64,000 nt of DNA from an uncultured Pseudomonadales bacterium (GCA_964607285.1 CAZSJW010000001.1:250555-314554), one strand, 5' to 3'; positions 3,584-56,310 are shown, numbered from the stretch's first letter. Notes: generated by a model not told the origin, from the sequence alone. Numbers and translations: made by a program.

Positions 3584-4254
3584 TCAACGCATGTTATATA
3601 CTGATGGGGTTCTTTTCTAGTATACTGAGCATAATGTCATACGCAGAACAAAAACGATTACTTGATTTAGTGGTAGCAACTATACTTGCGGTCGTGTTTT
3701 TGCCAATATGGTTTCTGATCCCAATTTTAATTTATGTGGACTCAGGTTTTCCAATTATTTTCAAACATAGACGTGTTGGCAAAAATGGCATGGCATTTGA
3801 TCTATACAAGTTTCGTTCTATGGTGCCAGATGCTGATGAAATCTTGCATAAGCGAAATCCACAGCTCCTAGAACAGTTTAAAAATGGTGACTGGAAAATT
3901 CAAAATGATCCTAGAATTACTAGACTGGGTAGGGTTCTCCGTTCGCTAACCATAGATGAATTCCCTCAGCTATACAATGTCTTTCGTGGTGAGATGAGTA
4001 TGATTGGTCCAAGAGCCTACGTCCAAAAAGAGCTCGATGAACAAACTACAAGATACCCTGAGACTAAACAATACGTTAGTCATATTCTTTCTGTAAAACC
4101 AGGGATCACTGGCCCTTGGCAAACAAGCGGCAGAAACGAGGTCCCATTCAAAACTCGTGCCAAAATGGATGCACAATATGCAAAAAAACAGTCTATCTGG
4201 GAAGATATTCAGATCTTGCTCAAAACACCTCAAGCGATGATCTCAAAATGGTAA
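3580..4254 (+). CDS. Polyprenyl-phosphate sugar phosphotransferase (bacterial sugar transferase, WbaP/PglC-like C-terminal domain)
   Basis: GTG start at 3580 overlaps the upstream stop; an alternative ATG is at 3604. There is one N-terminal TM helix. Motifs present: KFRSM, DE(I/L)PQL, PGITGPWQ(T)SGR. Confidence 0.75.
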   Translation: MINACYILMGFFSSILSIMSYAEQKRLLDLVVATILAVVFLPIWFLIPILIYVDSGFPIIFKHRRVGKNGMAFDLYKFRSMVPDADEILHKRNPQLLEQFKNGDWKIQNDPRITRLGRVLRSLTIDEFPQLYNVFRGEMSMIGPRAYVQKELDEQTTRYPETKQYVSHILSVKPGITGPWQTSGRNEVPFKTRAKMDAQYAKKQSIWEDIQILLKTPQAMISKW

Positions 4255-4284: not shown

Positions 4285-6291
4285 ATGCCCAACGCGCACA
4301 CTCCTAGTAACTCCGATACACACGAAACTATAGCTACTCGATTGTATGAGGATACGATTACGGGCGTTTCCTCAGACCCTGCTGCACCAACTACTCCTGT
4401 AAAAAGCCGACTAAAAAAAAGCTGGAGCAAACGGAGTAAGATACTGCTGATTTCATTGCTTTTACTGTTACTTAGCTTTATTAGTACCGCTAGTGTGCTT
4501 GGATTTTACAGTTATCGTGTTGTTCTGTCGCTACGCGAACAAGCAACGATTGGTGAAACACAAGCCCGAGAAGCATATCAATTATTCAAGGCACAAGATT
4601 TACCAGGAGCAAAAAGTAAAATTGCAGACTTACAAAAAACTGTAGATACCACTAACTCACTATACGGTAAATTGTCATTTGCACGGTACATGCCAATTGC
4701 GAGAGGCTACTACACTGATGGACAACATGGCATGAACGCCGCTCAGGCTGGTCTGCGTGCTGCAGAACAATCAATGGCAGCTGTTGAACCATACGCCGAT
4801 GTACTCGGCTTCACAGGTGAAGGTTCATTTACGGGCGGTACCACAGAAGACAGACTAAAAGTCATATTAGAAACACTAGATAAAGTAACGCCGCTGTTCG
4901 ACCAGATCACAGAAGAGATGCGTACAGTGGAAACTGAGCTGGCAGCAATTGACCCAAATAGATATCCAGAGGATTTTAAAGACAAACCTATTCGTTCATA
5001 CATCCTGCAAGTACAAGAGTTAAGCACTGGTGCTGTAAGTGCACTGACTGAGTACCGACCCGTGCTTGAACAGTTACCAGATGTAGCAGGAGGTAGAGGT
5101 GAAAGAAAAAAGTACCTGATTTTATTTCAGAACGATAATGAGCTCCGACCAACCGGCGGTTTCTTGACAGCCTATGCCATTATCAATGTAGAAAATGGCA
5201 AAGTGGAAGCAGAAAAATCAGATGACATCTATGAACTAGACCAGAAGTATAAAAAAACAGAAGCTATTCCACCTGAACTAGGCAGATATCTCACTACTGA
5301 GAAACTGTGGAATTTACGTGATATGAATGTTTCGCCAGATTTCAAAACGTCAATGGATCAATTTTACAGTGTGTACAAGAACATTCCTGGTGAACCAGAG
5401 AGCATTGATGGCATAATTGCAGTAGACACCCACTTCCTGACAAACCTGATGAAAGTGCTCGGCCCTGTGGAAGTTCCTGGATACGGCACATTTAGTGCTG
5501 AAAATGATCCTCGCTGTGACTGTCCGCAAATTATCTACGTCTTGTCAGAAATTATTACCAGACCAACTCCATACCTGCGTGAAGATCGAAAAGGAATTTT
5601 AGGTCCTCTCATGCGTTCACTGCTAACGAAAGCCTATACTGCACCAAAACAGCAATGGCCTCAGTTGTTCGAGACAGGATTCAAGAGTGTCATGGCTCGT
5701 CATGCACAGATGTACTTCCTTGATGAAAGTGCACAAGCAGCAGCTGAAACTGCACAAGCTGCTGGCAGAATGCAACCTGTAGAGAACAGTGACTTCCTAG
5801 GTATAGTCAATGCAAACCTTGGTGGTGCCAAATCCAACTTATTTGTCAGCTATGATGCAGTACAAACCGTCTCAGCGCCACGTGACGGTATGATCACTAA
5901 ATCAGTCGAAATTACCTACAAAAACTCCCGTAAAGGGGACAACTGCAATCTTGAAGCAGGTCTGCTATGTTTGAACTCAACACTTCGAGACTGGACAAGA
6001 ATTTATGTGCCTGCAGGCTCTGAGCTGGTAGAGGCACAAGGATTCACAGAGGAAGCTAAAATCTATGATGAAAACGGCTTTACCGTTTTTGACGGATTTT
6101 TTACGCTAGAACCACTCGGTACAGCCAAACTAAAACTCACCTATAAAGTTCCTTACAATGATATGGAAAAATATCGCATCACTGTTTGGAAACAAGGTGG
6201 CATTGAACGCTATGAGCTACTCTCCGATGTAGAGGGCGGACAAGAGAAAGTACTTGTAGAATCAGATCTCACATACGAAACTGAGTTCTAG
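4285..6291 (+). CDS. DUF4012-like envelope protein with an N-terminal TM anchor and a large extracytoplasmic domain
   Basis: 668 aa with a TM helix at residues ~55-75. Motif LFQNDNELRPTGGFLTAYAIINVENGKV resembles the conserved RPTGGF core I recall for DUF4012. It sits directly beside the sugar transferase, as is usual for that family. Confidence 0.5.
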   Translation: MPNAHTPSNSDTHETIATRLYEDTITGVSSDPAAPTTPVKSRLKKSWSKRSKILLISLLLLLLSFISTASVLGFYSYRVVLSLREQATIGETQAREAYQLFKAQDLPGAKSKIADLQKTVDTTNSLYGKLSFARYMPIARGYYTDGQHGMNAAQAGLRAAEQSMAAVEPYADVLGFTGEGSFTGGTTEDRLKVILETLDKVTPLFDQITEEMRTVETELAAIDPNRYPEDFKDKPIRSYILQVQELSTGAVSALTEYRPVLEQLPDVAGGRGERKKYLILFQNDNELRPTGGFLTAYAIINVENGKVEAEKSDDIYELDQKYKKTEAIPPELGRYLTTEKLWNLRDMNVSPDFKTSMDQFYSVYKNIPGEPESIDGIIAVDTHFLTNLMKVLGPVEVPGYGTFSAENDPRCDCPQIIYVLSEIITRPTPYLREDRKGILGPLMRSLLTKAYTAPKQQWPQLFETGFKSVMARHAQMYFLDESAQAAAETAQAAGRMQPVENSDFLGIVNANLGGAKSNLFVSYDAVQTVSAPRDGMITKSVEITYKNSRKGDNCNLEAGLLCLNSTLRDWTRIYVPAGSELVEAQGFTEEAKIYDENGFTVFDGFFTLEPLGTAKLKLTYKVPYNDMEKYRITVWKQGGIERYELLSDVEGGQEKVLVESDLTYETEF

Positions 6292-6305
6292 GCTACAATA
6301 CAGTC

Positions 6306-6848
6306 ATGGCATCTCGAACATTTTCAGCGCAAGGCATAATCTTGAAGCGCACTGATAGTGGTGAACAAGACCGTATTGTCCACATCCTTACTAAAGAGCG
6401 TGGGAAAATGATTTGCGTTGCTAAAGGAGTTCGCCGTATCACTTCCTCCAAAGCAAGCAGCTTAGAACCTGGCAACTTCATCTCTGGTTTTTTCGTTGAA
6501 ACAAAAAGCTGGCCACTACTGACTCAAGCAAAACTGATTGCAGACTGCGCAACCATGCCGAGAACACTACAAGCGTTTAGGCAACTTTCGCAAATATTAG
6601 AAATATTTGACCAAGTATTCGTGGAAGAAGAAATTGATACACCAATGTTTACTCTAATTACCAAGCTACGAAGCACCGTGACAAAGCCCGTCGTATCTAC
6701 TGCTCTCATTAGGGCTCAATTAAGTCTTCTTATCACACAGTTGGGCTTCCCTCACCCAGACACCCGACCAAACCTTACTATCAGTGACTATATTTCACAA
6801 CTCACCGAGCGACAAATAAAAAGTTATGACTACCTGAAAACTAAGTAG
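6306..6848 (+). CDS. recO: DNA repair protein RecO (short form, 180 aa)
   Basis: N-terminus SAQGIILKRTDSGEQDRIVHILTKERGKMICVAKGVRR matches the RecO OB-fold N-terminal domain pattern. It is shorter than typical RecO (~240 aa). Confidence 0.6.
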   Translation: MASRTFSAQGIILKRTDSGEQDRIVHILTKERGKMICVAKGVRRITSSKASSLEPGNFISGFFVETKSWPLLTQAKLIADCATMPRTLQAFRQLSQILEIFDQVFVEEEIDTPMFTLITKLRSTVTKPVVSTALIRAQLSLLITQLGFPHPDTRPNLTISDYISQLTERQIKSYDYLKTK

Positions 6849-6856
6849 CTCTCACA

Positions 6857-6865
6857 TGGTATACT
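6857..6865 (+). promoter_or_regulatory. Extended -10 promoter element (TGgTATACT) for the glyQS leader
   Basis: catgGTATACTaac sits directly after the recO stop, about 150 nt upstream of the glyQS ATG. Confidence 0.3.
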
Positions 6866-6871
6866 AACTAC

Positions 6872-7012
6872 TGTGTACTACTGAGTCTGTGGCAAGCTCA
6901 AAAAAAAGTAGGATCACACTGAAAGTGTTTCGCAGTTAGCGAGAAAAAAGGGTGGAACCGCCGAACATTGTTTGGTCCCTTTAGTAACAAATGTTGCACG
7001 GGAAAGGGTTTC
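6872..7012 (+). promoter_or_regulatory. Candidate T-box riboswitch leader (glycine-specific) upstream of glyQS
   Basis: T-box core AAAAAGGGTGGAACCGCCG at 6944-6963 (consensus AAUUAGGGUGGNACCGCG). The variable base gives UGGA, complementary to the ACCA end of a tRNA with discriminator U. The tRNA-Gly(CCC) in this window has discriminator U. Candidate specifier GGC-A at 6891-6894. Downstream, CCCTTT (6977-6982) can pair with the SD-like GGGAAAGGG (7000-7008), giving a possible SD-sequestering helix. Confidence 0.45.
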
Positions 7013-8404
7013 ATGCTAATTGCACAAAGTTCTCAACCATCTCTAGAGCAGATTACTTCTTTGGCAAAGCGCCGTGGTTTTGTGTACCAAACATCTAGCA
7101 TTTACGGTGGCTTGACTAGTTCGTATGATTTAGGTCCACTTGGGACTGAGCTTATGCGCAACATTCGTGCAGCCTGGTGGGAGTTCTTTATTTCCAGACG
7201 ACCAGATATGGTGGGCCTAGACTCACAAATCATGCTGCACCCACAGACTTGGGTTGCGTCAGGACATGTTGCCTCTTTTAGTGACCCGCTTGTTGAAGAT
7301 ACGGTGACAAAAAAAAGATATCGGGCAGATCACTTGATAGAGGCCTGGCTTAACAAGCATCCCGACAGCTCTATAGTTGTTGAGACAATGGATCTAACGG
7401 CTATGGCGGTTTTCTTGACAGAACACAATGTCCTGAGTCCTGATGGAAATGCCATCACCGAACCGAAGTCATTCAACCTCTTGTTTGAGACCGAAATTGG
7501 TTCTGTGGCGGGAGACAAAGCAAAAGTCTACCTGCGCGGAGAAACTGCACAAGGTATTTTCACTAACTTTAAAAATATCTTAGATTCAACCCGCGTCCAA
7601 CTGCCATTTGGTGTTGGTCAGATTGGAAAAAGCTTCCGCAATGAAATCACTACGGGACAGTTTGTCTTCCGCACACTAGAGTTTGAACAAGCCGAAATCG
7701 AGTACTTTTTCAACCCTCAACAGACGGACTGGAAAGTGCTCTTCAAAGAGTGGCAAGACTTGATGTGGGAATTTGTGACAGAAGTCATTGGGATACAGCC
7801 AAAAAATTTGCGCTGGCGCACACACACCGATACTGAGCGAAGCTTCTATAGCTTAGAAACAATGGACCTTGAGTATCTCTTCTCATTCGGCTGGAAAGAA
7901 CTGTGGGGCATTGCATACCGTACTGACTATGATCTCAAGCAACATGAAGTGTTAAGTGGCGAATCACTCCACTACACCGACCCTCATTCAGGCGAATCAT
8001 TCATTCCCCACGTTATCGAGCCCGCACTTGGCTTATCTAGGCTTTTCCTAATGCTACTAACTGATAGTTATATTGTGGACACTGAACGAAACCGCACTGT
8101 ATTGCGATTACCAAAATCCTTGGCCCCTACCAGAGCAGCAGTGTTTCCTCTGGTTCGCAACAAACCAGAACTGGTTGCTGCTGCTAAGGATATATGGCAG
8201 ACGCTTGCGCCTCATCATAGAGTCAGTTGGGATGACAGAGGTAACATTGGTAAACGATACTTATACCAAGATGAAGTGGGCACTCCATACTGCATAACAG
8301 TGGACTACCAAACACTGGAGGATCAAACAGTTACTATACGCGAACGTGACACAGCTACACAACAACGAATTGCTATCTCCAAACTCATAGAATTCTTGAG
8401 GTAA
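7013..8404 (+). CDS. glyQS: Glycine--tRNA ligase, single-chain alpha2 (class II) type
   Basis: The stretch LAKRRGFVYQTSSIYGGLTSSYDLGPLGTELMRNIRAAWW...HPQTWVASGHVASFSDPLVEDTVTKKRYRADHL is near-collinear with Thermus/archaeal-type GlyRS. The start at 7013 is supported by the SD GGAAAGGG 5 nt upstream; the ORF track starts at 6968. Confidence 0.9.
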   Translation: MLIAQSSQPSLEQITSLAKRRGFVYQTSSIYGGLTSSYDLGPLGTELMRNIRAAWWEFFISRRPDMVGLDSQIMLHPQTWVASGHVASFSDPLVEDTVTKKRYRADHLIEAWLNKHPDSSIVVETMDLTAMAVFLTEHNVLSPDGNAITEPKSFNLLFETEIGSVAGDKAKVYLRGETAQGIFTNFKNILDSTRVQLPFGVGQIGKSFRNEITTGQFVFRTLEFEQAEIEYFFNPQQTDWKVLFKEWQDLMWEFVTEVIGIQPKNLRWRTHTDTERSFYSLETMDLEYLFSFGWKELWGIAYRTDYDLKQHEVLSGESLHYTDPHSGESFIPHVIEPALGLSRLFLMLLTDSYIVDTERNRTVLRLPKSLAPTRAAVFPLVRNKPELVAAAKDIWQTLAPHHRVSWDDRGNIGKRYLYQDEVGTPYCITVDYQTLEDQTVTIRERDTATQQRIAISKLIEFLR

Positions 8405-8438
8405 GTGACAGTTTGCGACTCTAGTATTTTAGTATAGA

Positions 8439-9248
8439 ATGGCCTCTATGCAGAAAAAGCTCATTATCCCGATAGCTGTTGTTTTACTTATCATTGGCGG
8501 TGTCAGTGCATATTTTTTGACCAGAGAAAACAAAACCGATGTAGCTGATACTAGGAAACAAAAGAAGAAAGTTGAAGAGCCTGTGAATGTCATCCCCGTA
8601 GCAGAACGCCCCTACGTACAGATCTCACCAGTAGCTGATGGCAGAAATATTGAACTACTTGTTAAATCGCTCAACAAACCAGCAACAAGCGCAGAGTATG
8701 AGCTTGAGTACCAGTCAGGCACTTTACTGCAAGGAGCGTTTGGTTTACTTGAGCTATCACAAGTTCCTGCAAAGGAAACAATTTTACTAGGCAGCTGTAG
8801 CGCAGGTGGCAAGTGTACTTACCATGAAGATGTGAAAGGTGGAAGTCTCAAGCTTACATTTGATGGTGCGGAGCGGTACGCAGTTAAATCAGATTGGCGA
8901 TACTTTGAGAATACAGCTAAGGAAACAGCATTTTCTTCAAAGGATGCCAAGTTTCAAATTGAGTCAAAGTCATTTGCAACCCAACCATATGTGGTAATTT
9001 ACAATAGCCCAGGGTATCCAGAGGGAGTAGAGGGTGTCGTGTCTGAAAGTTACTCATTGGCTGTGAGTAAAACAATTACTGGAACAGCTACCTTGACCAT
9101 ACGTGCTGAGCAAGAGGGTAATCTCCAGATTATGGGTTGGAATGGCAGTGAGTGGCAGAGCTTTGAGAGTACTGTAGATGGAAAGATGGTTAGTGCTGAG
9201 GTGGATTTGATGGAGTTGTATGTGGTAAAAAACCTCTTGAGTAACTAA
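8439..9248 (+). CDS. Hypothetical membrane-anchored or secreted protein
   Basis: N-terminal hydrophobic helix (KKLIIPIAVVLLIIGGVSAYFL) followed by a Ser/Thr/Gly-rich beta-like domain. No recognisable catalytic motif. Confidence 0.4.
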   Translation: MASMQKKLIIPIAVVLLIIGGVSAYFLTRENKTDVADTRKQKKKVEEPVNVIPVAERPYVQISPVADGRNIELLVKSLNKPATSAEYELEYQSGTLLQGAFGLLELSQVPAKETILLGSCSAGGKCTYHEDVKGGSLKLTFDGAERYAVKSDWRYFENTAKETAFSSKDAKFQIESKSFATQPYVVIYNSPGYPEGVEGVVSESYSLAVSKTITGTATLTIRAEQEGNLQIMGWNGSEWQSFESTVDGKMVSAEVDLMELYVVKNLLSN

Positions 9249-39741: not shown

Positions 39742-39770
39742 TTGACAACAGGTGTTTATCATGTGACAAT
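39742..39770 (+). promoter_or_regulatory. Sigma70-type promoter: TTGACA, 17-bp spacer, extended -10 TGtGACAAT
   Basis: gTTGACAacaggtgtttatcaTGtGACAATacg, about 225 nt upstream of the ileS ATG. Confidence 0.45.
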
Positions 39771-39776
39771 ACGAAC

Positions 39777-39994
39777 ACGCCATCATCCGCCATCAACGGA
39801 GAGCCTCGCAGCATGCGGGGTGCGCAGACCAAAGAACTCGCCACAATGCGACACTAGACTGGTCCGGGTAAGCCCGTAATCGCTGGAATAAGTCTCGCCA
39901 AAGGCGGGAGAACAGAGGTGGTACCACCACATAGTTGGTCCTCTTGCAAACGTATATACGTGCAAGGGGATTTTTTTGTCCCCAGAAAGTAACA
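39777..39994 (+). promoter_or_regulatory. Candidate T-box riboswitch leader (isoleucine-specific) upstream of ileS
   Basis: GC-rich structured leader in an AT-rich genome. T-box-like core AACAGAGGTGGTACCACCAC at 39911-39930 (GGUGGUACC core). The variable base gives UGGU, complementary to ACCA with discriminator A as in tRNA-Ile. ATC-A candidates for the specifier are at ~39782-39795. Downstream are a long hairpin (39943-39966), a T7 tract (39971-39977) and a GGGGA/TCCCC hairpin. Confidence 0.4.
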
Positions 39995-42817
39995 ATGCCA
40001 ACCAAACAACCACTACCAGCCCAACCTAGCTTTCCACAAATGGAGGAAGAAGTCTTGGCATACTGGCAAAAAACCAAAGCTTTTGAGAAGTCAGTGGAGA
40101 TGCGCTCCGCTGATAAAGCGTACATTTTTTATGATGGACCTCCATTCGCCACTGGCCTGCCACACTACGGACACCTCCTCGGCTCAACATCTAAAGACGT
40201 CATCCCTCGCTACTGGACTATGAAGGGCTACCGTGTGGAACGCATCTGGGGCTGGGACTGCCATGGCTTGCCAATTGAGCACATGATAGAAAAAAAACTC
40301 AAGATAACTGGCGGCAAAAAAGGCATCGAGAAACTAGGTATCCACAAGTTCAACGAAGCCTGTCGCTCCGAAGTGCTACGCCTAGATACCGAGTGGGAGA
40401 AAATCATCGCTAGACTAGGACGTTGGGTAGACTTCAAGAACAACTACAAAACCATGGATACATCATATATGGAGTCTGTTTGGTGGGGCTTTAAGCAGCT
40501 GTTTGACAAGGGTTTGGTCTATGAAGGCAAGAAAGTGATTCTCTACTGTCCACGCTGTGCCACCCCACTCTCAAACTTTGAGATCGCCATGGATAACAGC
40601 TACCAAACCGTCACTGAACCTTCTAACACCTACAAGTACAAGCTCAAGGCAGAAGAAAATACCTACATCCTGGCTTGGTCTACAACTCCATGGAACAAGC
40701 TGGCAACTCCAGCTTTAGCAGTTCACCCAACACTCAAGTACGTCAAAGTCAAACAAGGTACAGAGTTCTACGTCTTGGCAGAGAGCACTCTCAAAATTCT
40801 TAGCGATGAATCATACGAAATTGTCAAAACCTATTCGGGCAAAGACCTAGAAAAGTTTGAGTTCGAGCTTCACTACGATTTCTATCCGCGTTCTCAAGGT
40901 CAAAAAGCAGGCGTGATAGTGGCAGATGAGTTCGTCACAGCTGAGGAGGGCACGGGTGTTGTTACCCTAGCCGTCTACGGCGAAGATGACTATCGTGTTA
41001 TGAAAGCCCACAACATTCAGATGGTGGAGCATGTTGATGATGAAGGCAAGCTCAAACCAGAGGTTACACAGTGGGCTGGTATGAACATCCAAGCCGTTAA
41101 TCCCTTAGTCAATGCTGATCTTGCGGAGAGAGGCCTACTGTACTCCGAAGAACCACACACCCACAGTGTGGCCGAGTGTTATCGCTGTAGCACTAGGCTG
41201 TACTACGCACCAATGCCAGCTTGGTTTATCAATGTGCAAGAACTCAAACAGGATTTACTCGAACACAACGAGAGTATCAACTGGTTCCCCAAACATCTCA
41301 AACATGGTCGCTTCAAACATGGCTTAGAAACAGCACCAGACTGGAATATCTCCCGCTCCCGCTACTGGGGCACTCCAATGCCAATCTGGGAAAGTGCAGA
41401 CAAAAAACTGCGCAGAATTGTTGGTTCTGTAGCAGAGCTGCAAGAATGGGCTGTTGATCCAGCCAAGGCTGCTGCAGTAACCGATATTCATCCCGAGTTC
41501 TTGAGTGATATCGAGCTTTGGGTTGATGCTGAGCGCACAGTCAAAGGTACCCGAATCAGTGAAGTCTTCGACTGCTGGGTCGAGTCGGGCTCCATGCCGT
41601 TTGCCCATCGTCACTATCCGTTTGCAAACAAAAAGCAGTTTGAGGCAACTTATCCTGCACAGTTCATCAGCGAGTACATTGCCCAGACCCGAGCCTGGTT
41701 CTACACCATGCACGTTATGTCAGTGGGTGTGTTTGGCAAACCCGCTTTTGAGAACGTTCTCACCACGGGCACAATCTTAGCTGAGGATGGCAGTAAAATG
41801 AGTAAGTCTAAAAATAACTACCCAGATCCCATGGTCTTGATTGACAAATATGGCGTAGATAGCTTGAGGCTGTATTTGATGAGCTCAACGGTCATGAAAT
41901 CGGAAAATCTGAACTTTTCTGAAAAAGAAGTTGGAGACATTCGCAAGAAAGTCTTCCTGATCTGGTGGAATATGTATGCGTTTTACCATCTGTATGCGCC
42001 ATTTGAGGCACAGGAAGTAGCTGAGTTGCCACCGCTCGAAGAAGTCACTGATGTCATGGATCGCTGGGTGCTGAGTCGTTTGGCAACAGTTACGCTGGAA
42101 GTCACCAAGGCATTTGATTCGTACAATACTATCAAGGCGTCTCGGCCGCTGATGGAGTTTGTGAATGAACTTTCTACCTGGTACTTGCGTAGAAGTCGTG
42201 AGCGGTTGAAGGACAACCAGACATCGCTACGGGTGTTTGGGCATGTTTTGTATCGACTGGCACAGTTGTTTGCGCCGCTTGCACCTTTTTTTAGTGAGAA
42301 TATCTACCAGCGAGTGCTAAACACAGATCTTAGTGTGCACCACACGGATTGGCCAGTGCTGGATGCTAGCTTGAGGCATCCAAAGCTAGAAACTAACATG
42401 ACACTCATCCGCTCCGTTGTTGAACGAGTGCATGCTGCTCGCTCTGAGGCTGGAATCAAAGTTCGGCAGCCACTGGCAAATGTGGCAGTTACTGCACCAT
42501 CCAAACCTGAAGATAATCTGCTTGCGGTATTGTTGGAAGAGGTCAATGTTAAGACTGTTAAGTGGACAGTGGGAAGCGACTTAACGGTTAATCTCAACAC
42601 AGAGCTTACTCCTGAATTAGAAGCTGAGGGCAAAGCGCGGGAGCTAATCCGAAGCATTCAGAAGTTGCGGAAGGAAGCGGGGTTGCAGGTTGGAATGCAC
42701 GCTACTGTTACTGTGCCGATGAATACAATTTCAGAAGAGTGGCAGAATCGGGTAGCTGAAATCACGTGCTCAACCATTTTGGTTGGTGACGATTTAAAAA
42801 TCAGTACCGAATCTTGA
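39995..42817 (+). CDS. ileS: Isoleucine--tRNA ligase
   Basis: HIGH motif (PPFATGLPHYGHLL) and KMSKS (GSKMSKSKNN). 941 aa from the ATG at 39995 (MPTKQPL...); the ORF track starts at 39935 inside the leader. Confidence 0.9.
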   Translation: MPTKQPLPAQPSFPQMEEEVLAYWQKTKAFEKSVEMRSADKAYIFYDGPPFATGLPHYGHLLGSTSKDVIPRYWTMKGYRVERIWGWDCHGLPIEHMIEKKLKITGGKKGIEKLGIHKFNEACRSEVLRLDTEWEKIIARLGRWVDFKNNYKTMDTSYMESVWWGFKQLFDKGLVYEGKKVILYCPRCATPLSNFEIAMDNSYQTVTEPSNTYKYKLKAEENTYILAWSTTPWNKLATPALAVHPTLKYVKVKQGTEFYVLAESTLKILSDESYEIVKTYSGKDLEKFEFELHYDFYPRSQGQKAGVIVADEFVTAEEGTGVVTLAVYGEDDYRVMKAHNIQMVEHVDDEGKLKPEVTQWAGMNIQAVNPLVNADLAERGLLYSEEPHTHSVAECYRCSTRLYYAPMPAWFINVQELKQDLLEHNESINWFPKHLKHGRFKHGLETAPDWNISRSRYWGTPMPIWESADKKLRRIVGSVAELQEWAVDPAKAAAVTDIHPEFLSDIELWVDAERTVKGTRISEVFDCWVESGSMPFAHRHYPFANKKQFEATYPAQFISEYIAQTRAWFYTMHVMSVGVFGKPAFENVLTTGTILAEDGSKMSKSKNNYPDPMVLIDKYGVDSLRLYLMSSTVMKSENLNFSEKEVGDIRKKVFLIWWNMYAFYHLYAPFEAQEVAELPPLEEVTDVMDRWVLSRLATVTLEVTKAFDSYNTIKASRPLMEFVNELSTWYLRRSRERLKDNQTSLRVFGHVLYRLAQLFAPLAPFFSENIYQRVLNTDLSVHHTDWPVLDASLRHPKLETNMTLIRSVVERVHAARSEAGIKVRQPLANVAVTAPSKPEDNLLAVLLEEVNVKTVKWTVGSDLTVNLNTELTPELEAEGKARELIRSIQKLRKEAGLQVGMHATVTVPMNTISEEWQNRVAEITCSTILVGDDLKISTES

Positions 42818-56236: not shown

Positions 56237-56310
56237 TGGAGCGGGATACGGGAATCGAACCCGCTTCTTATCCTTGGGAAGGATACATACTACCAGTGTA
56301 CTAATCCCGC
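56237..56310 (-). tRNA. tRNA-Gly (anticodon CCC), CCA encoded
   Basis: The reverse complement is GCGGGAT-TA-GTAC-ACTGGTA-GTAT-G-TATCC-TTCCCAA-GGATA-AGAA-GCGGG-TTCGATT-CCCGT-ATCCCGC-T-CCA. Anticodon loop U33-CCC-A37; discriminator U. Confidence 0.8.

Follow-up and report, generated by a model that had tools for sequence, protein, structure and literature searches.

The 164-nt gap between recO and glyQS in DNA labelled as coming from an uncultured Pseudomonadales bacterium (GCA_964607285.1, CAZSJW010000001.1:250555-314554; the whole analysed stretch of 64,000 nucleotides is called the window here) contains a leader that we identify from sequence comparison as a reduced glycine T-box. The recO stop codon lies at 6848 and the glyQS ATG at 7013. 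The putative regulated gene, glyQS (also glyS), encodes a single-chain (alpha2-type) glycine--tRNA ligase (glycyl-tRNA synthetase, GlyRS). An initial annotation had proposed a glycine T-box at this position, and the elements it named are all present where it placed them: TGGTATACT at 6857-65, GGC-A at 6891-94, AAAAAGGGTGGAACCGCC at 6945-62, CCCTTT at 6977-82 and GGGAAAGGG at 7000-08. The features of the locus are as follows, with A1' denoting the 3' strand of helix A1, SD the Shine-Dalgarno sequence, RBS the ribosome-binding site, MFE the minimum free energy structure and CPR the Candidate Phyla Radiation.

6306-6848, + strand: recO (Pfam RecO_N), the upstream neighbour, outside the riboswitch and listed for context
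6857-6865, + strand: extended -10 promoter TGGTATACT, read directly from the sequence; predicted transcript start at about G6873
6878-6911, + strand: ultrashort Stem I, made of P1 (CUACU 6878-82/AGUAG 6907-11) and P2 (GAGU 6883-86/GCUC 6896-99)
6887-6895, + strand: apical loop of Stem I, CUGUGGCAA, closed by the 4-bp P2
6891-6894, + strand: specifier GGC (glycine) and conserved purine A, matching the amino acid of the downstream GlyRS
6900-6906, + strand: 7-nt A-rich loop on the 3' strand of Stem I only
6912-6921, + strand: 10-nt linker from Stem I to the AAAGUG/Stem III module
6922-6927, + strand: conserved purine motif AAAGUG, placed on 'aaAGuG' of RF00230 with high posterior probability
6928-6944, + strand: Stem III (UUUCGC 6928-33/GCGAGA 6939-44, loop AGUUA)
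6945-6962, + strand: T-box core AAAAAGGGTGGAACCGCC, read directly from the sequence
6945-6982, + strand: T-box discriminator (antiterminator/antisequestrator), found by RNAalifold with no structure supplied
6947-6952/6977-6982, + strand: helix A1 (AAAGGG/CCCUUU), covarying in the family alignments
6953-6959, + strand: 7-nt bulge UGGAACC, of which UGGA is the predicted pairing site for the tRNA 3' UCCA
6960-6966/6970-6976, + strand: helix A2, covarying in the family alignments
6984-6997, + strand: small hairpin GUAAC-AAAU-GUUGC in the spacer from A1' to the RBS, seen in MFE folds
7000-7008, + strand: SD segment GGGAAAGGG, read directly from the sequence
7000-7015, + strand: ribosome-binding region GGGAAAGGGUUUC with AUG (7013-15); GAAAGG(G/A) followed by 4-7 nt and AUG is kept before glyQS in CPR relatives
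7013-8404, + strand: glyQS/glyS (NCBIfam NF003211, 576 bits; TIGR00389 glyS_dimeric, 492 bits; Pfam HGTP_anticodon)

The promoter and its neighbourhood

A box of the TGnTATACT type, like that at 6857-65, ends about 7 nt 5' of the ATG in many genes of the window, and the glyQS transcript start at about G6873 is predicted by analogy with these genes. A simple sigma-70 scan did not call the 6857-65 box, the reason being that it has no -35 match. Boxes of this kind (TGnTATACT or TACAAT) precede, for example, the ATGs at 3604, 4285, 6306, 37228, 47587 and 56413. None of the 50 window open reading frames of at least 120 aa has GGAG or GAGG upstream, and the genome appears almost SD-free and largely leaderless. 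The AAAGGG 5' of glyQS is the sole AAAGGG upstream of the 50 window genes; having a 5' leader, the glyQS mRNA therefore carries one of the few recognisable RBSs of this genome.

Closer relatives of the window were found by searching a large protein collection, and their contigs were compared around glyQS. Two of them, L161 (82% GlyRS identity) and L162 (77%, 'Candidatus Woesebacteria'), have recO upstream, the same extended -10 element (TGCTATACT in L161 and TGGTATACT in L162) and the same reduced T-box. The order recO-leader-glyQS is kept in L161, L162, L168 and L169, and recO stands upstream of glyQS/glyS in Bacillus and Staphylococcus too. A longer order, comprising a DUF4012 protein, a short recO (about 180 aa), glyQS and an unannotated protein of about 266-269 aa, is kept among Woesebacteria-like relatives (window 4285-9248; L161, L162, L167); in L167 the DUF4012-recO-glyQS order is present and the T-box is absent.

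A reduced glycine T-box family

At the gathering threshold, a search with Rfam returned no T-box match in the window leader, and on 39 related loci it returned nothing except one cobalamin riboswitch (RF00174, 76 bits, at L012:2296-2485, 3' of glyQS in a Chloroflexota metagenome-assembled genome and unrelated to the T-box). RF00230, the T-box model that the initial annotation had recommended as a check, thus failed at its gathering score of 93, but a permissive search of 6700-7100 gave 32.3 bits (E 1.3e-5). In this permissive alignment the AAAGUG motif, Stem III and the antiterminator were confidently placed, with the model's Stem I and Stem II regions essentially skipped. Because RF00230 depends on a long Stem I, the miss at the gathering threshold is not evidence of absence.

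A GlyRS protein search, with one genome taken per species, yielded 80 loci, with identities of 50-71%, in Patescibacteria/CPR and Anaerolineae. The motif GGTGGAACC[G/A]C occurred upstream of glyQS in 19 of these 80 genome loci, always (19 of 19) as the UGGA variant, and not one of the 19 reached the Rfam threshold for RF00230. When the window and the 19 relatives were aligned with plain MAFFT and RNAalifold was run without a supplied structure, the program recovered Stem III, helix A1, the 7-nt UGGAACC bulge and the base of helix A2, with compensatory changes in 11 of 16 pairs. The proposed 4-bp specifier hairpin was added to the structure before pairs were counted on the same alignment. Paired cells then made up 89.1%, as opposed to 31-50% with the partners slid, and the covariation score was 0.572 compared with at most 0.13 with the partners slid. 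None of 500 shuffles reached the observed pairing or covariation values, and a 40-member alignment agrees.

A covariance model built from this alignment (R1, with the window among its training sequences) found further family members in the genome loci and 20 in 80 metagenome loci. We then relied on a model rebuilt from 36 other leaders (R2; alignment A4) with the window excluded. Searching the whole 64-kb window on both strands, R2 identified 6869-6983 with 61.7 bits and an E-value of 6.9e-13. About 47 glyQS leaders from CPR/Patescibacteria and Anaerolineae have this common reduced architecture with strong covariation, none of them at the Rfam threshold, and the relatives that do not have the reduced T-box have no T-box at all, their glyQS standing directly behind a promoter. 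Several small-genome metagenome-assembled genomes of the set, among them L001, L004, L007 and L010 and including single contigs of 1.2-1.4 Mb, bear the public labels Vitreimonas, Pseudomonadales or Gammaproteobacteria though their GlyRS and leaders cluster with CPR or Anaerolineae; these are probably mislabels.

The absence of an Rfam match at the gathering threshold is what would be expected if no T-box were present and both GGC and the core motif had arisen by chance in an AT-rich spacer. Such coincidence is hard to reconcile with the E-value obtained from an independent model, or with a position before glyQS that is kept in about 47 genomes together with covarying helices; the idea is already effectively refuted, and we give it almost no credence. 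We regard it as confirmed, on comparative grounds, that 6873-7012 is a genuine glycine T-box leader. The initial annotation is borne out in this respect, including its GGC-A specifier, by the R2 score, by a nearly invariant U-GGC-A and by the identity of the downstream gene. To judge from the same alignments, CPR and Anaerolineae have a family of reduced glycine T-boxes that curated models miss.

The helices of this family vary in sequence and remain paired. P2, which closes the apical loop, has compensatory changes at all four pairs in both alignments, the unbiased MAFFT one and that of 40 members; it was also aligned by R2 and is present in the unconstrained MFE of the window. A Stem I with a specifier loop can thus be folded, as the initial annotation had supposed. 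P1 differs in sequence in L161 and in L162 with its pairing kept. Stem III has compensatory changes at 7 of 7 pairs in the family alignments, in which 97-100% of the cells of A1 and A2 are paired. Within the apical loop, U-GGC-A-A is nearly invariant. Among the variants, L085:969-1087 carries the loop GUGGAAC with GGA-A, a specifier whose expected partner would be tRNA-Gly(UCC), and L063:1306-1428 and L003:238-364 have GGC-C, without the usual conserved purine after the codon.

Stem I of the window is confined to 6878-6911 and has no distal tRNA-elbow platform, no kink-turn (K-turn) and no AG bulge. No member of the family has room for the distal Stem I platform, and none has a Stem II/IIA-B domain. 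No extra 5' RNA is available because the promoters, often near-consensus (e.g. TTGACA-17-TAGAAT), end 6-15 nt before P1 in many members. A K-turn lies at the base of Stem I in about 24 of 40 relatives (e.g. GCAGC-GAU-GA-U-CGC...GCG-G-GA-GCUGC), and in these K-turn-bearing members the linker from Stem I to AAGUG measures 5-20 nt. Its absence from the window is unremarkable, since the GA motif is missing from 29% of T-boxes (PMC11404447). As far as can be read from the alignments, the unusual feature is the combined loss of the tRNA-elbow platform and Stem II, with a specifier in the apical loop. The initial annotation missed this architecture of ultrashort Stem I, apical specifier loop and no Stem II.

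A longer Stem III with a conserved apical loop, approximately UGGAUAUCAUG, was seen in L001, L015, L042, L082, L083, L085, L088, L091, L147, L163, L165 and L168. It is absent from the window, L161 and L162. This loop may perhaps touch the tRNA at a further site, in place of the Stem I platform that was lost.

Taken as a whole, the comparative evidence shows a reduced architecture that consists of a short Stem I with GGC-A in an apical loop resembling an anticodon loop, neither platform nor Stem II, the AAAGUG motif, Stem III and a canonical discriminator.

Terminator or occlusion of the ribosome-binding site

In 35 of 40 aligned members, a long hairpin starting in the A1' strand is followed by a tract of U6-8, 19-51 nt after A1'. 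The window leader has no U-tract and has the shortest distance from A1' to AUG among the 40; at most four U's occur in any 8 nt, the run being CCCUUU itself. A terminator scan of 6600-7200 found nothing; the same scan missed the bulged-stem terminator of an ileS T-box elsewhere in the window, and the scans were checked by folding and by eye. The sole candidate terminator hairpin spans 6977-7008. It has a predicted energy of -8.5 kcal/mol (z -0.96; 31 of 200 shuffles), contains a 1x5 internal loop and is followed by UUUC.

L161 and L162 share this state. Neither has a U-tract; in both, a short hairpin after A1', at the same place as the spacer hairpin of the window and of unrelated sequence, is followed by GAAAGG(G)UU(U/C)C-AUG, and in all three genomes the RBS lies 29-34 nt after A1'. 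R2 scored L161 at 60.5 bits and L162 at 55 bits. Within the trio A1 covaries, AAAGGG:CCCUUU becoming GAAGGG:CCCUUC in L162, and P1, Stem III and A2 differ in sequence and still pair. Because the terminator-less arrangement is common to the window, L161 and L162, it represents a conserved state of a subclade and not a one-off lesion. Among the next relatives out, at 75% GlyRS identity or less, two states occur: L163-L166, L168 and L169 keep a U6-7 terminator, with the same RBS placed 25-30 nt farther downstream, and L167 no longer has a T-box. A terminator-type ancestor that lost the 3' arm of its terminator together with the U-tract is the probable origin of the subclade. The RBS of the terminator-type sisters L163, L165, L168, L002, L009 and L083 reads GAAAGG(G)UUCU-AUG and lies 25-100 nt after their terminators. 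Outside the subclade, the L007 and L036/L113 lineages also have no U-tract, and their A1' pairs with the SD via different sequences.

The same T-box could still act by transcription attenuation, with the hairpin 6977-7008 and the following UUUCAU serving as a weak terminator, or it could act at both levels. The hairpin does use the A1' strand exactly as the family terminators do, and weak U-tracts may work: L001, a 71% relative, has a strong hairpin followed by only UUUCUC, its RBS being 45 nt further on. Yet the window hairpin is no better than its shuffles and only three U's follow it. The scan of 6600-7200 was empty, the T-boxes of the other aligned members mostly carry U6-8 and that of ileS in the same genome carries U7, and L161 and L162 share the lack of a U-tract. 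We consider attenuation at glyQS rather unlikely.

What the leader does offer is a partner for the RBS. In the unconstrained, tRNA-free MFE of the window, an 8-bp helix joins G-UGGAACC (6952-59) to GGUUUCAU (7007-14), a segment made up of the SD 3' end, the spacer and the first two bases of the AUG. All three subclade members have such an 8-bp core-RBS helix, with GGUU(U/C)CAU as the RBS strand, in their MFE (z -3.07 for the window, -1.86 for L161 and -4.32 for L162), and the tRNA-free MFE of all three keeps Stem I, Stem III and A2. L161 shows an additional pairing of A1' with AAAG of the SD. The predicted local energies of the window folds, all for the + strand leader, were:

-16.1 kcal/mol: ON fold (A1, A2 and spacer hairpin)
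-14.9 kcal/mol: CCCUUU:AAAGGG fold
-20.1 kcal/mol: T-box core paired with the RBS
-25.4 kcal/mol: MFE (extended core-RBS fold)

When A1 was enforced and UGGA left free, the modelled accessibility of the RBS rose in all three leaders (window, 0.31 to 0.62; L161, 0.14 to 0.64; L162, 0.26 to 0.75), at a cost of 5-8 kcal/mol. Folding with and without the antiterminator had been advised in the initial annotation. The sequestering helix that it had put forward, CCCTTT with the SD, fared less well. Sequestration of the RBS is indeed predicted, but CCCUUU:AAAGGG is the weaker pairing, and the core-RBS helix is more stable and more conserved. As a sole sequestrator CCCUUU:AAAGGG was rejected, since its fold is less stable than the ON fold (-14.9 versus -16.1 kcal/mol) and than the core-RBS folds (-20 to -25 kcal/mol); it was kept as an auxiliary. 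Another helix, GCAGUUAGCG (6932-41) with UGCUAAUUGC (7014-23), appeared in the MFE of the whole gap and disrupts Stem III. We judged it a chance match: it vanishes when the fold ends at 7018, and about 0.7 such 10-bp matches (Watson-Crick and GU) are expected, by estimate, per 160-nt RNA.

The ligand is indicated by the bulge and the specifier. The only tRNA-Gly gene in the 64-kb window, tRNA-Gly(CCC) at 56237-56310 on the minus strand, has U as its discriminator base (U73) and an encoded CCA. The UGGA bulge is complementary to U73, and the base match pointed out in the initial annotation therefore holds; it is seen, however, only on tRNA-Gly(CCC), whose anticodon cannot read GGC.

Following the general T-box mechanism, uncharged tRNA-Gly(GCC) would base-pair at two sites, through its anticodon to GGC and through its 3' UCCA to UGGA, and so stabilise A1; charged tRNA would be unable to make the UGGA pairing or stabilise A1. 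When no uncharged tRNA is bound, the core (6952-59) would pair with GGUUUCAU at 7007-14 and the RBS would be occluded, the A1' strand CCCUUU (6977-82) possibly assisting by pairing with AAAGGG (7003-08) or with the GGG of the SD. With uncharged tRNA on UGGA and A1 formed, the RBS would be released and GlyRS would be made.

From the anatomy, the folding and the closest relatives, we infer that the output is translational. The best explanation of the leader, and in our modelling a reasonably probable one, is a reduced glycine T-box whose output is the initiation of translation, controlled by occlusion of the RBS. Translational rather than termination control had been suggested in the initial annotation, and it is made more likely by the missing U-tract in the trio, by the RBS at 29-34 nt after A1' and by the U7 of ileS as a control.

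Several observations weigh against RBS occlusion as the output, or against parts of the proposed switch. The expected cognate, tRNA-Gly(GCC), was not found in the window, a statement whose scope is these 64 kb. Truncated Stem I's bind tRNA poorly without Stem II (PMC7583486), and given that report, binding of tRNA by a minimal form that has neither elbow contact nor Stem II is an assumption of the model. The modelled accessibility of the SD also shifts somewhat in terminator-type controls, and SD-accessibility modelling alone gave no clean separation of the candidates lacking a U-tract from these controls. The bases of the core-RBS helix are invariant or nearly so, the only changes being U/C opposite two G's with no true covariation; because of this invariance covariation cannot confirm the helix. 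Weak U-tracts may still terminate in this group, to judge from the close relative L001 with its strong hairpin and UUUCUC. GGGGUUUC also stands 5' of glyQS in L018, which has no T-box. Finally, the RBS of terminator-type sisters gives the same 8-bp complement (Watson-Crick and GU) to the core GUGGAACC, and phylogenetic inertia, that is, ancestry rather than selection, could explain the match as judged from these sequences. This complementarity in the sisters also lends something to attenuation, as it suggests an ancestor under dual control; combined control of transcription and translation in that ancestor is possible on the available alignments.

The invariance of the pairing bears as well on whether the window carries a decaying T-box, its terminator deleted, with glyQS constitutively expressed from the TGGTATACT promoter and the RBS pairing incidental. 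The sequestrator pairing has no support from covariation, and many relatives without a T-box, including L167 with the same synteny, express glyQS directly from a promoter. Decay would, however, have had to leave every conserved family position intact and a leader that scores 61.7 bits with a model from which it was excluded. The terminator-less architecture is moreover kept in L161 and L162 at 77-82% GlyRS identity, and Stem I, Stem III, A1 and A2 have diverged and yet remain paired, implying purifying selection on the fold. We therefore think decay improbable.

A functional T-box might instead act on mRNA stability or processing, for example through ribonuclease access in the tRNA-free fold. 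There is no terminator, and the two folds differ in single-stranded A/U-rich segments. Nothing specific favours it, and occlusion is the simpler account, with the RBS itself as the pairing partner in three genomes; an effect on stability seems to us no more probable than decay.

Relation to known T-boxes and the ileS leader

The glyQS and glyS leaders of Firmicutes (B. subtilis, G. kaustophilus, S. aureus; RF00230) share with the window leader a GGC specifier followed by a purine, a UGGA bulge complementary to U73, the lack of Stem II or IIA/B, a purine-rich linker, Stem III, a discriminator of A1, 7-nt bulge and A2, and a GlyRS gene downstream. They differ in that their Stem I is long, bears the specifier in an internal loop and has a distal platform of interdigitated T-loops that stacks on the tRNA elbow, and in that they end in a terminator. 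In contrast, Stem I of the window is about 34 nt long with an apical specifier, and the leader has neither platform nor terminator; its RF00230 score is 32 bits versus a threshold of 93. A T-box on an alpha2-type GlyRS had been called unusual in the initial annotation; this was wrong, as the glycine T-box of S. aureus glyS regulates just such an enzyme (PMC4574755, PMC7583486, PMC11404447). In all characterised glycine T-boxes Stem II is missing and Stem I is long (PMC11404447, PMC7583486); that of B. subtilis glyQS is described as the simplest of T-boxes (PMC7583486), and glycine T-boxes have been noted in Chloroflexi and Deinococci (PMC5622331).

A second likeness is to the translational ileS T-boxes of Actinobacteria (M. 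tuberculosis, N. farcinica), whose short or 'ultrashort' Stem I was reported by Sherwood et al. 2015, as described in PMC7583486 and PMC11297988. These too have a truncated Stem I without the platform and with an apical specifier, and oppose SD sequestration to an antisequestrator built from the discriminator, which is what we predict for the window; they are likewise bistable, with ON and OFF states a few kcal/mol apart. Unlike the glyQS element, they possess Stem II (with an S-turn) and a IIA/B pseudoknot, which make up for the absent elbow contact and are both required for tRNA binding (PMC7583486). They also respond to Ile and not Gly, and belong to Actinobacteria as opposed to CPR/Chloroflexota. 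Furthermore, the predicted glyQS sequestrator uses the tRNA-binding bulge itself and not just A1', in which the actinobacterial ileS elements differ, and most members of the glyQS family are of the terminator type.

In the searchable literature we found no description of reduced glycine T-boxes, though an earlier description is possible, as this literature does not cover all key T-box papers. We tentatively propose, as an idea that could well prove wrong, that the glyQS leaders of CPR and Anaerolineae represent a minimal T-box occurring in nature, whose span from Stem I to A1' is about 90-115 nt. Such an element would recognise tRNA-Gly only by its anticodon (three G-C pairs) and its NCCA end, dispensing with both the elbow platform and Stem II, and would work as an attenuator in most members and as a translational switch in the window subclade, where the acceptor-binding bulge would double as an anti-RBS. 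In that subclade, tRNA and RBS would then compete directly for the same seven bases.

If true, this would contradict the view that truncated Stem I's need Stem II and the rule, given in a review, that transcriptional T-boxes need a long elbow-binding Stem I (PMC7583486). A family without either feature and with clear terminators in most members would be a natural counter-example to both. T-boxes are a model for the recognition of one structured RNA by another, and the minimal form would give a smaller scaffold for structural work and for the engineering of tRNA sensors. One clade holds the terminator type, the predicted RBS-occluding form and complete loss of the T-box, and would thereby expose the evolutionary step from transcriptional to translational control. 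The alignments further indicate T-box regulation in CPR/Patescibacteria, a group for which Rfam-based annotation reports no T-box; in practice, searches by homology that apply curated thresholds give too low a count of T-boxes in uncultivated phyla.

The window contains a second T-box, upstream of ileS:

39742-39770, + strand: promoter of the ileS leader, TTGACA-17-(TG)GACAAT
39773-39977 (leader to 39994), + strand: second T-box, upstream of ileS (RF00230 29.6 bits, E 5.6e-5, sub-threshold; R2 13 bits)
39995-42817, + strand: ileS coding sequence (TIGR00392, 777 bits)

Its Stem I appears ultrashort as well (UCCG-CCAUCAA-CGGA); the apical loop holds the specifier AUC-A. A region resembling Stem II/IIA-B (CGGG-UAAG-CCCG-UAA) and the core AGAGG-UGGU-ACCAC follow. 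The terminator is a bulged hairpin (-11.6 kcal/mol, z -3.56) with A-U7, after which comes GUCCCCAGAAAGUAACA-AUG. Judged by its sequence, this T-box would act on transcription and combine that output with a short Stem I of the actinobacterial style. As it keeps its U7 terminator, the organism evidently uses classical T-box terminators, but not on glyQS.

The two leaders thus lie in the same genome and share a sub-threshold Rfam score, an apical-loop specifier and a canonical discriminator (UGGU in ileS), whereas only that of ileS retains the Stem II/IIA-B-like region and the U7 terminator. A G-C-rich glycine codon is held to make Stem II dispensable, and A/U-rich codons to need it (PMC7583486). 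The contrast between glyQS and ileS fits this published idea that Stem II is dispensable for the all-G-C glycine duplex.

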